DNA of 52,876 nucleotides from Minisyncoccota bacterium (GCA_023142595.1 JAGLJF010000024.1:1-52876), one strand, 5' to 3'; positions 2 to 9,000 are shown, counted from the stretch's first letter. Program-made: numbers and translations. The notes: generated by a model from the letters alone, not told the origin.

Positions 2-3000
2 ACAAAACTTGATCACGAAATTGAAAGCTACGACAATACTACAGGAGAAATTCAAGCTTGGGTAAAAGTCCCCACAGTTTCATCTTCAACTGACACCACA
101 ATTTATATCTATTACGCCAATTCATCCATAACCACTTCTCAAGAAAACATTGCTGGCGTATGGGATGATGGGGGAGCAAATAACTTTAAAATGGTCCAAC
201 ATCTCAGTGAAGATCCATCAACAGGCGCTCCTCAATCAATAGATTCCACTCAATATAATAATGACGGAACATCAGCTGGAACGATGCTCACGGAAGATCA
301 AGTCGCTGGACAAATCGACGGAAGTTTAGATTTTGACGGCACGGATGATTATGTGGATATGGGGAATGATGGGAGTTTGGATATTACGGATGAGATTACG
401 ATTAGTGTGTGGGTAAAAACAATCATTGGAATACAACAAAGTTTCGTTAGTAGTGATGATAATAATAATAGAAATTTTGCATTACAACTTAAAAGTGGTA
501 CATTTTTTGCCAATTTTTATCTTTTTAGAGGTGGTTCTTCAGCTGTTTCAAATTTAGAAGGAACAACATATATACCAGACGGAGAATGGCATCATATAGT
601 CGGAACATTCACAAGCGGAAACCAAAAATTATATGTAGATGGGATAGTAGAGGCAACGGGAACTGGTATTGGAAGTATTGATACTGATCCTGTAAGTTTA
701 ACTATTGGTGCAAGAGAAAATGGTATGGATAGACTAACCAACGGCCAAATCGACGAAGTCCGTATTTCAAACACAGCCCGCTCAGCTGATTGGATAGCTA
801 TAGAGTATAATAATCAATCAGAACCAACAGAGTTTTATTCTCTTGGCATTGAAGAAGTACAAGCTCCTTCTAATCTTTCAGCTTGGTCATATCGAAAAGC
901 AATTACCATAGACAACACCAAAGTCTCAGGAAGTTCAGACCTCGCAAACTTCCCAGTTCTCATCAATCTCCCTACAGACACAAACCTTGCAACAAACGCT
1001 CAAGCAGATGCAGATGACATCCTTTTCACAACAAGCTCAACAAACTGGGCAACAGCAACTCAAAACGACAAACTTGCCCATGAGATTGAAAGCTATACTT
1101 CTGCCACAGGAGAACTTCAAGCTTGGGTCAAACTCCCAACCCTAGATTACAACGACGACACCACAATCTATATGTATTATGGAAATGGGAGCATTGCGTC
1201 TCAACAAAACCCCACTGTAGTCTGGGATTCAAATCACAAAATGGTTCAACATCTCAGTGAAGACCCATCCACCGGAGCCCCTCAATCAATCGACTCCACC
1301 CAATACAGCAATGACGGAACATCAGGAGGGACGATGACCAGCGGTGATCAAATCGCCGGAAAGGTTAACGGGAGTTTGGATTTTGACGGGATGGATGATT
1401 ATGTTGATGCGGGGAACGATGCGAGTTTGGATATTACGGATGCGATTACGATTGAGATGTGGGTAAATCCTTCCACAATAAATGTTAGGCGATATGGAAT
1501 GCGTAAAGGTGACGCATTCTATTTGATGACGACAGAGAGTGACGGAAAGGTGTTGTTTCGTTTTTGGGATAACTTAGGTAATATTAAAACAACACACGGT
1601 GATGTTAATACAATTATCCCCGCATTGAGTTGGTCTCATATTAGTGCAATTTATGATGGTACATATGCGAAAATCTATATTAATGGTGTAGAAAAATACA
1701 GTAGTGACGCAGATGAGGGGACCACATTAAATACAGTCGCAGATTACTTGAGGATTAGTGCAAATGAATTCTACGGCTCCATGGACGAAGTGCGCATCTC
1801 AAACACCGCTCGCTCAGCTGACTGGATTGCTACAGAGTATAACAATCAATCAACTCCCACAGAGTTCTATTTTATAGGCATTGAAGAAGTACAAGCTCCT
1901 TCTAATCTCTCAGCTTGGTCATATAGAAAAGCAATTACCATCGACAACACCAAAGTCTCAGGATCATCAGACCTCACCAACTTCCCAGTTCTCATCAATC
2001 TCCCTACAGACACAAACCTTGCAACAAACGCTCAAGCAGATGCAGATGACATCCTTTTCACAACAAGCTCAACAAACTGGGCAACAGCCACTCAAAACGA
2101 CAAACTAGCCCATGAAATTGAAAGCTACATTTCTGCCACTGGAGAACTTCAAGCTTGGGTTAAATTTCCTACACTAGACTATAACGACGACACCATAATC
2201 TATATGTACTACGGAAACGCCACCATTGCGTCCCAACAAAACCCAACCGCAGTCTGGGACTCCAATCACAAAATGGTTCAACATCTCAGTGAAGACCCAT
2301 CCACAGGAGCGCCACAATCCATCGACTCCACACAGTATAGCAACGACGGAACATTAGGAGGGACGATGACCAGCGGTGATCAAGTTGCAGGAAAGATTGA
2401 TGGGAGTTTAGATTTTGATGGGACAGATGATTATGTAGATGCGGGGAATGATGGGAGTTTGGATATTACTGGTAGTTTTACTATTGAAACATGGTTTAAT
2501 CCTACTATATGGAATGATGGAGTAAATGGGGAGAAAACATTAGTTAATAAAAATGATTATAATGGTGGTAATCAGGAAGGATGGATTTTTGGACGGAGAT
2601 GGAGTAGTTCTGAAGGTATTGAATTTGTTATAAAACACGGTGATGGAACTACTGATGGTTTAGGTAATGTTGGAAATATAGAAGCAATGAAAGGAACGTG
2701 GGTTCATGCGGTGGGAGTGTTTAATTCTGGAAATTATATTAAAATTTATATAAATGGAGTTGAGATAGGAAGTGATGATTCCGTACAAACATCTTTTGTT
2801 AATACCGATATTAGAAATACAAGAATAGGAAAGCGTTCAGATGGAGGTGCTTATTTCCAAGGCTCCATCGACGAAGTCCGTATTTCAAACACAGCCCGCT
2901 CAGCTGATTGGATAGCTACAGAGTATAACAATCAATCAACTCCAACAGAGTTCTATTCTCTTGGTATTGAAGAAGTACAATCTCCTTCTAATCTCTCAGC

Positions 3001-6000: not shown

Positions 6001-9000
6001 TGATATCATTTTTAGTAGAATTGGTGCAGGGATTACTGATACTTTTTATGGTGGCCAGATCGACGAAGTCCGTATCTCTAACATCGCTCGCTCTGCTGAT
6101 TGGATTTTGACAGAATACAACAACCAAAACTCTCCATCTACATTCTCTGCTCTCTCATCAGAACAAGTTTATGAAGTAGCTATCACAGGAACTGGAACTC
6201 AAACAGCTGGAGCAAGCCAGACGATTACTATCACTGCTAAAGATGTTTTAGGGAGCACCATCACAACATTTACAGGAGATAAATCAGTTATCTTTTCTGG
6301 CGCTAATGATTCTCCCAACTCAACTACACCAACTTGTTCCGACAAAGATTCAGCAGACATTGATTTTGGATCTGCGACAACTCTCACTTTCACAAACGGA
6401 GTTGCCACCTGCGATCTGAAATTATACAAAGCCGAAGTTGCCACGATCACCACCGATATCAATGATGTGACTGACACAAATCTTTCCGTCACAGTTTCAC
6501 CAGCAACACTGGAAAACTTTCTCGTTGACGCTCCCGCTAGTTCTGACTCAGGCTCGGCATTTTCAACGACCATTACTTCTCGAGATGTATATAATAATAC
6601 CACGACAACAGTGACGGGCGACACGACTCTCACTGTCAATCAAAGTGGCATCATTTCTCCAATCACAATTACGAGCGCCAATTTTTCAGATGATGGAATC
6701 TACACTGACAATCTCACCATCACTAACATCACCGAACAGCCATCTGCGACAATCACCGCTACTAATGGATCGTCAACTGGCACAGATAATATCTCTATTC
6801 TGGGAATTCCAGCAGACCCGACTTCCGCCTCAGCTTCCAGAAATTCAGATACGCAGTTTACCATCACTTGGCAGGATAATTCCACAGTGGAATCAGGATA
6901 TAAGATTGAAAGAAAAACTGACACGGGTTCAGGCTTTGGAGCATACTCTCAAATTGGAACTGCCAGCGCTGATGCCACTTCTTTTGTCGATAACTCCACC
7001 AACAATCCAGCTGACCCACCCCAAGCCGATGAAAGATATCAATATCAGCTCAGAGCATATAACACAATTGGAAATTCAGCGGGATATTCTGAAGACTCTG
7101 TTATTCATTACACCACTGCTGGAACTCCATCAAATATTACTGGAACATATGCCAGTGATACTCAATTTTCAGTCAGCTACACCGACACCGCTTCAGTGGA
7201 AGACACTCACCGAATTCAAAGATGTTCTAATGCCAATTGCACCGTCACTTATGAAACAGATCTGGGAACATTTGAATCATCTCCTCAAACAGACTCCACA
7301 AGCGTTTTTGCAAACTCCCGATATCGTTGGCAAGCAAGATCAGAAACTCCCGATTCTCTTTATTCTGCTTATGCTTCATCTAACTATGAATATACTACTC
7401 CGACTGCTCCAATCATTGGAACTCCTGCTTTTGTTTCTAACACTGAAATCACAGTCAATTGGACAGACAATTCTGATTATGAAGACGGATTTCGAATTGA
7501 AGTTTCCATTGATGGGGGAGCGTACGCAGAAATCACTCCTGGCGCAAACACGGTGGGAGCAAATATCGAAAGTTATGCCTACACTTCAACTGCTAATCAT
7601 AACTATAAATTCAAAATCAGATCCCATGTTGGATCTACTGTCACCAATTCAGAACTTCTTTCTGCTTATTCTGATGAATCAACTGAAATTTATACAACCG
7701 CTTCATCTCCTACGATTGGAACATCCACTGCTGATTCATCCACAGCGATGACATTCAACTGGACAGACAACTCCGCTTTTGAAGAATCATTCAGATTAGA
7801 TTTCACGACAGGAAATGGTACAAATGTCGATGACATCACAGCAGACCTTGAAACTTATCAAGTGACAGGACTGACTCCCAACACTCAATACGCAGTTCAC
7901 ATTCACAGCTACCGATCTGACACGGGAGAATCAGACGCTTCTGCAAGTTCATCTGCTCTTTATACACTTGCCAACATTCCTTCAAGCCTATCTTTTGTAG
8001 CTGACAGCATAACTCAAATCACAGCTTCTTGGAACGCAAATTCCAATCCAGCAGGAACAGAATATTACATCCAAAACGCTACTGAAGGAACAAACTCAGG
8101 CTGGATCGCTGACACCTCTTGGATCTCTTCTTCTCTGGGTTGTTCCACTTTCTATTCTTTCCAAATCAAATCCAGAAACGGAGACCTTGTTGAAACTGCC
8201 TATACAACCCTCACAAGCTCTTCAACTCAAGCTTGCGCAGTACTTCCACCAGGAATTTCAAATCCGCCAGCTGAACCAGAGCCGACACCAGAAAATCCAA
8301 TAGCAGATTTTACTGTAGTAATTAATAATGATGACAAATATTCAAACAGCAAGACAGTGAATTTGAAATTCAACGCTGGATCTGATACAGCCAGGGTGGC
8401 AGTTTCAAATACAGAAGATTTTATTGGCGCCGCGCAAGTTCCATATCAAGAAGAGATTGAGTGGGCGTTGTCGGAAGATTGTTTTGACGGTAGAGACGCA
8501 GCAGTGCTACGTCTCTACGAAGCGTGCAGTGTTTATACTAAATTCTATACTAAATATGGAGTGGCATCCAAAATTGTTTCCGATGACATTATCCTCGACA
8601 CTCAAGTTCCAGAATTGATAATCGGCACCGAGCAAGATTTGTATAATCAAGGTGAAAGCATTTTGATTTATGGAACATCAGAACCTTTCGCTCAAATCAC
8701 TTTCAACCTTAATGATAACTTTATCAGCACAGATAGTGTTGATAATAATGGTTATTGGTCAATTAGACTTGATGATCTTTCTTTGGGATTATACAATCTT
8801 GTGGTTACAGCAGTAGATGAAGCAGGGAATGAGAATTCTAGTTTGGTGATTTTTTCTGTAAATGAAATCCTAAAGGATGAACTCCGAGACGATCAAGATA
8901 AAGTCCGAGATGATGAAGATGAAATCCTAAAGGATGAATTCCAAGACGATGAAAATGAAATTACAGAAGATGAACTCCGAGATGATGAAATTAAAGAAGA

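Follow-up and report, generated by a model that had tools for sequence, protein, structure and literature searches.

Bacteria of the candidate phyla radiation (CPR) are thought to be attached to other cells, and how they recognise their partners is largely unknown. Diversity-generating retroelements (DGRs) that act on lectin-fold binding proteins are reported to be common in CPR genomes. In Patescibacteria, 82 of 149 proteins longer than 4000 aa contain FhaB and/or DUF2341, and the part of that study used here suggests a role in adhesion or host interaction (PMC11809585). The PilY adhesins of type IV pili also contain DUF2341, according to the part of the source used, as do large proteins of archaea whose genes lie at pilus loci (PMC4858521). 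Here we analysed a 52,876-nt stretch of DNA (hereafter the window) from a Minisyncoccota bacterium (GCA_023142595.1, JAGLJF010000024.1:1-52876), which begins with the gene for a giant surface protein in which six LamG domains, or heads, alternate with copies of a DUF2341-containing scaffold. The window is the start of contig C17 (G000:C17:1-52876) of the studied genome, labelled G000, an assembly of 1.04 Mb in 74 contigs (98.29% complete, 31.5% GC). The bacterium is tiny and of the Paceibacteria type within the CPR.

By its domain content, the protein belongs with the giant DUF2341 proteins of Patescibacteria. Alternation of LamG heads, discordance between scaffold and core, and head turnover, all seen here, do not appear in the parts of the two papers cited above that were used. 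In a limited literature search, we found no description of LamG head exchange in DUF2341 arrays (such proteins may be listed in Table S13 and Figures S6-S8 of PMC11809585). In contrast to the DUF2341 adhesins of pilus loci, this gene adjoins rpoB, rpoC, ftsK and recA, and the pilus ATPases of the genome lie on contigs C3, C4 and C14. We propose, with a probability of about 0.6, that recombination at conserved flanks exchanges the LamG heads of this membrane-anchored, adhesin-like protein while the scaffold is retained.

Scaffolds and LamG heads of the array

The gene is a single uninterrupted frame of 3386 codons (stop codon at 10160-10162) that is open at the contig start. A reading made earlier from the DNA alone (the sequence-only reading) had placed six LamG cores in frame at 191-6130. 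The six cores in frame were recovered: Pfam identified six Laminin_G_3 domains (PF13385), five complete and one partial DUF2341 (PF10102) and one fn3 domain. All six PF13385 matches span model positions 1-149/151 and score 57.9-100.5 bits (curated cut-off 27.6), and the six DUF2341 matches in C17 score 34.2-40.3 bits (curated cut-off 23.4). Position 191 is not a gene start, since the frame is open to base 2 and ATG 191 encodes the internal Met of KMVQHLSEDPS, a peptide present in every unit (6x).

To compare units, we took the core as the segment between DDYV and DEVR and the scaffold as DEVR through DDYV, the latter containing the last LamG strand, a linker, DUF2341, a second linker and the first LamG strand. 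Successive units are spaced by 1050, 1032, 1086, 1077 and 1077 nt, and consist of five scaffolds of exactly 654 nt, without indels, and six cores of 378-432 nt. The scaffolds share 86-90% pairwise identity (dS 0.41-0.70, dN 0.04-0.06, dN/dS 0.07-0.13). The scaffold is thus shorter and less uniform than the near-identical, homogenised segment of about 700 bp described earlier, and it is kept by purifying selection and not freshly homogenised. In contrast, pairs of cores share 17-28% amino acid and 42-51% nucleotide identity in protein-guided alignments, which is at chance level (shuffled sequences, 23 +/- 3%), and the earlier observation that cores differ at the DNA level was confirmed. Similarity is thus not a property of the whole repeat, because 654 of ~1070 nt per unit are alike (86-90%) and the remainder is at chance similarity.

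Among identical-residue codon pairs, the same codon was used in 1407 of 1916 pairs in scaffolds (0.455 expected) and in 183 of 328 pairs in cores (0.507 expected; p = 0.07), so that a synonymous signal persists in scaffolds and not in cores, although as a test of core age this has low power, with core identity near chance. The scaffolds are mosaic: 62% of the pairs among 72 informative sites are incompatible, with fewer incompatibilities among neighbouring sites (permutation p = 0.016), and several variants are common to the scaffolds of G000 and those of a related genome, G003. This site pattern is that expected if scaffolds were shuffled by short conversion tracts. The junctions are as first described, with a right junction that always falls about 5 codons before DEVR and a staggered left junction in three classes (units 1-2, units 3-4 and units 5-6). 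Codon usage changes abruptly at the junctions, within ~5 codons.

The cores had also been called foreign-looking and AT-rich in codon usage. AT-richness holds for five of the six, as the GC content of third codon positions (GC3) is 0.16-0.20 in cores, except core 2 (0.37), and 0.34-0.41 in scaffolds. Foreign origin is not suggested by codon usage, because the cores match the genome (mean GC3 0.235; 5-95% range 0.175-0.30; 561 ORFs), in which 2.5% of 1505 windows of 130 codons reach a GC3 of 0.34. In agreement, NAY, TTY and ATY codons end in C in 41 of 285 cases in cores (14%) and 171 of 332 in scaffolds (52%), compared with 17% genome-wide (cores versus scaffolds, p = 5e-23; cores versus genome, p = 0.27). 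C-ending codons make up 42% of the proximal part of the C-terminal region (6152-10159), fading to 30% distally, and the sign of the GC skew flips between scaffold and core. Hence, the cores look native and the C-rich scaffold is the compositional outlier. The lower GC3 of cores than of scaffolds recurs in the G003, G002 and GC-richer G007 orthologues described below, and is therefore a family trait and not a mark of recent import. Two causes of the scaffold bias were considered and set aside: translational selection, as two EF-Tu/EF-G-like genes have C-ending codons at 17%, the same as the genome, and GC-biased gene conversion, as fourfold sites in the conserved parts are enriched in C alone (0.26) and low in G (0.05).

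Head turnover between lineages

Heads and scaffolds are decoupled, heads have been replaced between species, and the junctions are sharp and shared. Scaffold matches were present in 15 of 41 related genomes (G000 included), and an orthologue group defined by the C-terminal region contains seven members. Their C-terminal identity to the gene in G000 is 92.5% for G003 (= P0009; over the 680 residues after the last core), 67% for G002 (= P0061; over 238 aa), 63% for P0007, 56% for P0008 and 54% for P0010; G007 is included without a value. In a tree of scaffolds, each lineage forms one clade for P0007 (bootstrap 100), P0008 (90), P0010 (100) and G007 (100), and the scaffolds of G000 and G003 form a joint clade (bootstrap 70) with no resolved inner structure, in which dS between copies is about that between the species. 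The cores show no such grouping. Across the 29 cores of the seven orthologues (27 distinct; 406 pairs), the median identity is 26%, non-identical pairs reach at most 40%, and none of the 27 is common to different lineages, consistent with the separate scaffold and core histories that the sequence-only reading had supposed.

Downstream of the G003 gene, synteny is retained with ftsK, an HTH gene and recA, for which dS between G000 and G003 is 0.55, 0.42 and 0.50, respectively; the region after the last DEVR has a dS of 0.54 and a dN of 0.08. Judged by these values, G003 is a sister species of G000 (background dS ~0.5). The two terminal cores of G003 share at most 36% identity with any of the six G000 cores although their flanks are conserved, and core 6 is 28% identical to the terminal core of G003, so the orthologous array does not carry the same cores in the same order. 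pS between G000 and G003 rises, somewhat noisily, beside the last core. The last G003 scaffold has a dS of 0.69 to its positional counterpart S5, compared with 0.50-0.58 to S1-S4. Growth of the arrays by unit duplication within each lineage would mean that the heads were exchanged later, and homogenisation of scaffolds over old heads would leave the lineages with heads in common, of which there are none. Therefore, head turnover is required under either history of the array. The data support separate histories for core and scaffold, which require recombination at the conserved LamG edges.

A second giant protein provided an internal control. It contains a vWA domain, Cys-rich modules and two LamG domains, is encoded by non-repeated sequence (G000:C3:22623-28655) and has a collinear orthologue in G003 (G003:C2; L186:4841-11206; 77.6% identity over 2003 aa). 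The core of its LamG #2 is 90-100% identical between G000 and G003, whereas that of LamG #1 (~C3:25677-26126) is 15-29% identical, with indels. The replaced segment starts after ...AITxxxWVK and ends before F.GLI(N/D)EVRIYN, which are the same edge motifs as in the array, and its flanks are unique conserved sequence. pS is 0.41-0.73 through the replaced core and 0.65 over the next 30 conserved codons (pN 0.10), compared with 0.1-0.5 elsewhere. We read this pattern as the footprint of recombinational import of a diverged allele, and not of local selection on residues.

Further evidence came from core 3. A word-based search matched its variable part to a single relative, one LamG domain of P0152 (74% identity, 100% coverage, E = 4e-53), a 1732-aa protein whose LamG array has linkers of another class. 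This match runs from FDGxDDYV to ID.V.I, exactly between the LamG edges, and the remainder of P0152 has at most 34% identity to anything in G000 or in a LamG array of G003 (G003:C1). By comparison, core 3 has at most 34% identity to its five neighbours. In-frame module swapping at conserved LamG motifs, as proposed from the sequence, thus gains support from the decoupling, the G003 cores, the C3 replacement and P0152; foreign composition, phage donors and a distinct dedicated system do not.

We then considered the DUF2341-LamG family, which has 6,685 representatives at E <= 1e-30, by delimiting 514 cores in the top 150 representatives; family members have up to 19 units. A relative with at least 45% identity exists for 206 of the 514 cores, in another protein for 146 of these. 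Of 57 reciprocal-best cross-protein core pairs, 17 combine a core identity of 0.72 or more with a measured flank; conservation of the core exceeds that of all flanks measured in 15 of them, and family cores reach up to 93% conservation. These pairs were, however, picked for a core similarity that could be detected, a bias in the comparison that counts against our reading. On this evidence, the cores are not intrinsically fast-evolving. Ten protein pairs share at least two cores, with the core order inverted in two (P0027/P0039 and P0033/P0080) and collinear in two. For every one of the 71 family proteins that have three or more cores and two or more scaffolds, median core identity lies within 0.21-0.36 and scaffold identity within 0.45-0.92, with this protein (0.91) and P0007 (0.92) at the extreme of scaffold uniformity. 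The conserved-scaffold, divergent-core architecture as such is therefore common, and not special to this locus.

Scans with the region after the last core gave two relatives in genomes, L130 (94% over 400 aa) and L131 (68% over 254 aa), and no strain-level relatives in either metagenomes or genomes. Most of the other loci in the metagenome and genome scans (62 and 49 loci in all) match only the first 25-88 residues, which contain the DEVRISN...EYNNQ junction; in three the match extends to 122-132 residues (36% identity), and in one it begins at residue 13. The junction peptide, DEVRISNxARSxDWIxTEYNNQ, located after LamG domains, is 57-89% conserved in loci among L068-L178 with titles that name Bacteroidota, Acidobacteriota, Planctomycetota, Asgard and methanogenic archaea, so that the LamG-to-DUF2341 junction occurs widely in both domains.

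In the model that we favour, six different LamG heads (concanavalin-A-like lectin fold) would be displayed on a uniform scaffold of DUF2341 plus linker, and an Ig/fn3-like stalk would keep them at a distance from the cell. These heads would represent distinct, long-diverged LamG lineages. Recombination would act in the conserved DNA flanking every head, that is, the 654-nt scaffolds within the array and the unique flanks at the C3 locus, and the minimum handle may be the codons of the LamG edge motifs (FDGxDDYV...ITxxxWV on the left and GxIDEVRI on the right). A head would be replaced in frame by double crossover or gene conversion with other DNA that carries a LamG; the donor may be DNA taken up from another strain, in the form of an allele or an array, or a different LamG protein. 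Unequal crossing-over between scaffolds would alter the number and order of units, and strong purifying selection together with short conversion tracts would keep the scaffolds alike. The genome encodes RecA, a ComEC-type channel and type IV pilus ATPases, and has no detected reverse transcriptase, silent archive or adjoining recombinase (see below); therefore, ordinary homologous recombination is the process proposed, probably by way of RecA and DNA uptake. From the fold families and architecture, the protein is a putative adhesin, and its heads may be under selection for non-redundant binding specificities. We tentatively raise a broader idea, which we consider doubtful at present, in which LamG heads form a mobile module pool in CPR bacteria. 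Edge-motif DNA would then offer universal in-frame handles, reinforced in DUF2341 arrays by the uniformity of the scaffold repeats and preserved by the C-rich, non-native scaffold codons, and any LamG head from a surface protein or environmental DNA could be inserted at any position, giving programmable multi-lectin display and allowing host or glycan specificity to be retuned over short evolutionary timescales.

For the array, the main alternative to head exchange is differential loss from a larger ancestral array, i.e. concerted evolution in which ancient, differing LamG units had their scaffolds alone homogenised by intragenic gene conversion and purifying selection, species differ by the units that they lost through unequal crossing-over, and no head was imported. 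Mosaic scaffolds with incompatible sites, scaffold monophyly in each lineage, the same architecture in all 71 multi-unit proteins, family members with up to 19 units and the lack of donors for five of the six cores would all be compatible with this history. However, the ancestor would need at least 27 different units, none of them common to the seven orthologues, and the complete G002 gene has two. It also fails on the C3 locus, where a core was replaced with no paralogous scaffold present and with raised synonymous divergence in the conserved flank, and on P0152, where the 74% relative of core 3 sits in a different backbone. We therefore consider it unlikely. Less likely still is rapid divergence in place, by which units duplicated at about the time of the G000/G003 split and their heads diverged by mutation and indels under relaxed or diversifying selection with AT-biased mutation, the scaffolds meanwhile being maintained by purifying selection. 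By calculation, at dN = dS = 0.5-0.7 about 25-35% of codons would have no replacement, as in the observed identity range, and the low, genome-like GC3 of the cores and their lower GC3 in G003, G002 and G007 are what this process would leave. Yet the LamG model is matched end to end by all six cores, the neighbouring C3 LamG core stayed 90-100% identical over the same time span, and family cores are often conserved above their flanks. Saturated pS in conserved codons beside the replaced C3 core, the closeness of core 3 to a module in another backbone instead of its neighbours and the abrupt codon-usage shift at the junctions are equally unexpected from divergence in place.

An assembly artefact, with units of several co-occurring related genomes threaded into one array through the scaffold repeat, is very improbable. 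The gene does lie at a contig end, divergence among scaffold copies is as great as that between G000 and G003, public contigs break within every scaffold, and joints and loose ends, ambiguous between the array's remaining five units and relatives, are numerous at the junctions. Against an artefact, four public runs from one study contain 61-92% of the sampled words from the first 7,000 bases of the window, and exact contigs cover each core and its junctions, with every core-scaffold junction found in three or four of the four runs. Mean depths in the four runs were 17, 10, 25 and 5, with the six cores and the unique C-terminal region rising and falling together (coefficient of variation 0.15-0.21 in any one run), the frame is intact over all codons, and P0007, P0008 and P0010 share the multi-unit layout with four or five unrelated cores each. 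To a dedicated machine for diversifying the heads, whether a DGR-like retroelement or gene conversion from silent cassettes, we give almost no credence; analogy alone speaks for it, namely variable ligand-binding modules between sharply conserved borders. PF00078 reverse transcriptase had 0 matches in the 98.29%-complete genome while control genomes gave matches, which rules out a DGR or retroelement and agrees with the earlier view that the locus is distinct from DGRs. The cores differ at all bases and by indels, not at template adenines, and a genome DNA search with window positions 1-3000 (cores 1-3) found no DGR template repeat, matching scaffold segments only. Likewise, no silent LamG cassette archive was found, as the 10 PF13385 matches in the genome (6 in this gene, 2 in C3, 1 in C38 and 1 weak match in C58) all lie inside four long ORFs of 879-3386 aa, and there is no site-specific recombinase within 18 kb downstream. 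The same six cores were present in the four runs. The candidate adhesin-diversification system suggested by the sequence-only reading thus has no support as a dedicated one, there being no cassette archive and no reverse transcriptase. In the four runs no alternative core was seen, but contigs drop rare variants, and the many joints and loose ends could equally stem from other units of the array or from relatives.

Several results weigh against head exchange. At 74%, the relative of core 3 is too distant to be a recent donor, and searches of 32 genomes of the order and of 401 genomes sampled from the class did not recover it. The other five cores have no relative of at least 45% identity among the 514 family cores or in loci L058-L178; cores 2 and 6 had none in word searches limited to proteins of up to 2000 aa (182-2000 aa for core 2), and the best BLAST match of core 1 in another protein is 42% over 69 aa. 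Six viral-contig scans, one per core, gave a single remote match (core 1, 34% over 63 residues) and nothing for the other five, and phage donors were rejected. For five of the six cores, these searches gave no phage, archaeal or other donor. G003 provides the only species-level comparison close enough to be informative, and its array is cut after two units, so that differential unit loss from a larger ancestral array could also produce the difference. In the four runs from one study, each core is present as exact contigs at even depth and no alternative core was seen in place of any of the six, although contigs drop rare variants. The order of units rests on short-read assembly alone, and as public contigs break in every scaffold there is no independent confirmation of it. 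Finally, the low GC3 of cores and the excess of C-ending codons in scaffolds have no explanation in the model.

Gene, protein and genomic setting

The features of the gene are listed in Table 1. The partial first DUF2341 is 80% identical to residues 257-394 of an N-terminal fragment in G003 (G003:C57), and scaffold 0 is 78% identical to the first post-anchor DUF2341 of the complete G002 gene, compared with 66% to the internal scaffold of that gene. The first DUF2341 is thus of the N-terminal type; therefore, the missing N-terminal part is probably only about 235-255 residues, and the array would be complete at six units. Within the C-terminal region, Big_6 matches in the stalk are below the curated cut-off, the acidic repeats are the most divergent stretch relative to G003 (dN 0.27), and the CarboxypepD_reg-like match scores 25.7 bits (cut-off 32.3). 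At the C-terminus, a hydrophobic stretch precedes the last residues, RRFRVVKKRN. A nested ORF of 368 codons (6645-7751, +), lying entirely within the giant gene but in a different frame, has the highest GC3 (0.425) among genome ORFs of 200 aa or longer; it is most probably a side effect of the unusual composition of the giant gene and not a gene itself. AlphaFold2 on unit 3, with a five-row alignment, gave an unusable model (mean pLDDT 42.8). In the ESM Atlas, cores 4 and 6 fall in the same generic Laminin_G_3 clusters (123-131 of 256 features shared), which identifies the fold family only and is uninformative on donors.

Table 1. Features of the giant surface-protein gene (positions in the window).
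Feature	Position	Strand	Basis or remark
Giant surface-protein gene, 5' truncated by contig start	2..10162	+	ORF and Pfam domains
Scaffold 0: partial first DUF2341 (N-terminal type), linker, first LamG strand	2..355	+	Sequence comparison
LamG core 1	356..751	+	Full-length PF13385; GC3 0.197
Scaffold 1	752..1405	+	654 nt; identity 0.87-0.89 to other four; GC3 0.38
LamG core 2	1406..1783	+	Sole core with scaffold-like GC3 (0.37)
Scaffold 2	1784..2437	+	654 nt
LamG core 3	2438..2869	+	Variable part 2492-2854
Scaffold 3	2870..3523	+	654 nt
LamG core 4	3524..3946	+	PF13385; GC3 0.17
Scaffold 4	3947..4600	+	654 nt
LamG core 5	4601..5023	+	PF13385
Scaffold 5	5024..5677	+	654 nt
LamG core 6, last head, adjoins unique C-terminal region	5678..6061	+	PF13385
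Unique C-terminal stalk, Ig-like and fn3-like repeats	6062..8854	+	PF00041 fn3 at residues 2506-2586
Acidic Asp/Glu-rich tandem repeats in stalk	8855..9087	+	Tandem Repeats Finder, periods 15-96 nt
CarboxypepD_reg-like domain, then hydrophobic C-terminal anchor with basic tail	9800..10159	+	Profile match and translation

Between 10.4 and 28.1 kb, the stretch covered here, ten ORFs encode an IS200-like protein, RpoB, RpoC, FtsK, an HTH protein, RecA (23303-24355), two methyltransferases and an ATPase; no type IV pilus genes were found among them. The IS200-like Y1 transposase ORF, a weak match (E = 2.7e-5), lies directly downstream of the giant gene at 10413-10811. When window positions 12506-19699 were compared with G003:C9, rpoB and rpoC separated the giant gene from ftsK in G000, whereas the G003 gene adjoins ftsK, and a local rearrangement therefore distinguishes the two genomes. 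Adjoining recA, positions 24416-28085 encode a D12-class N6-adenine methyltransferase, a C5-cytosine methyltransferase and an HATPase_c_3 protein, which may form a restriction-modification or defence cluster. A pair of type IV pilus ATPase genes is located ~10 kb upstream of the C3 giant gene on the same contig.

Other genes with these domains were also noted. A second DUF2341 gene at a contig end (G000:C58:2-2638, -) encodes a membrane anchor, DUF2341 and a truncated LamG that stops directly behind the left-junction motif ...ITLSxWV, where a different DUF2341/ConA-like module is joined on. The same fusion is present in G003:C57 (L061:2-1498, -), which is 63% identical to the C58 protein overall and has a first DUF2341 nearer to that of the window (80%) than to that of C58. 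This fusion may be another recombinant joined at the same LamG motif. In G003:C1 (3-3542; L187), a LamG array shows the same pattern, with unrelated cores and a different near-invariant linker that lacks DUF2341; no orthologue of it was found in the G000 assembly.

Comparison with known exchange systems

A bearing on host recognition in CPR bacteria is likely. If the heads are exchangeable, exchange could change what a cell sticks to, the arrays would be prime candidates for determinants of host or substrate specificity, and head turnover would be a readable record of host switching. The locus would also be a natural system for domain-level recombination, with six exchange sites in one gene and a swapped and a conserved head as control in C3, and with a family of 6,685 representatives the rules learnt here could be widely applicable.

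Block exchange by recombination in mosaic surface proteins is already known; what sets the present case apart is the domain-precise borders and the six chained exchange sites. In flagellin H-antigen alleles, an example of a mosaic surface protein, the ends are conserved and the central domain cannot be aligned. As in flagellin, conserved flanks would permit recombination, the exposed module appears to be replaced as a block, between strains in the case of flagellin, and synonymous divergence rises near the block. In contrast to flagellin, the block here is a complete LamG fold, and there are six chained sites, each flanked by the same 654-nt repeat. The silent-cassette gene conversion systems vlsE, pilE/pilS and the MgPa repeats likewise involve segmental replacement between conserved borders of an expressed surface-protein gene, but the gene studied here has no intragenomic archive and its turnover was seen between species, not within a clone.

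DGRs share an apparent purpose with this locus, a diversified ligand-binding module of a surface protein, and Laminin_G_3 motifs occur in some long DGR target proteins (PMC5758913). The difference is that whole domains vary here, including indels, and not adenine-templated positions in a short variable region. Polymorphic toxins, in which modularity is typically found inside one polypeptide and exchange takes place via recombination (PMC13274773, in the part used here), offer another parallel. In those of the CDI/Rhs type, as here, a short conserved motif forms the in-frame border of an exchangeable module. However, the modules of the present protein are binding domains with both borders conserved and multiple internal sites, and as its variable modules are LamG domains, with no immunity-like partner or orphan module downstream, it is not itself of the polymorphic-toxin type. 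The UmbA lectins of Streptomyces umbrella toxins include one laminin_G_3 family among their domain families, and, in the same part of that source, their lectin repertoire is read as bet-hedging over unpredictable targets (PMC13274773). Both systems thus present a repertoire of different lectin modules on one scaffold; the umbrella lectins are separate polypeptides on an adaptor, whereas the heads described here are fused in tandem into a single cell-anchored chain.

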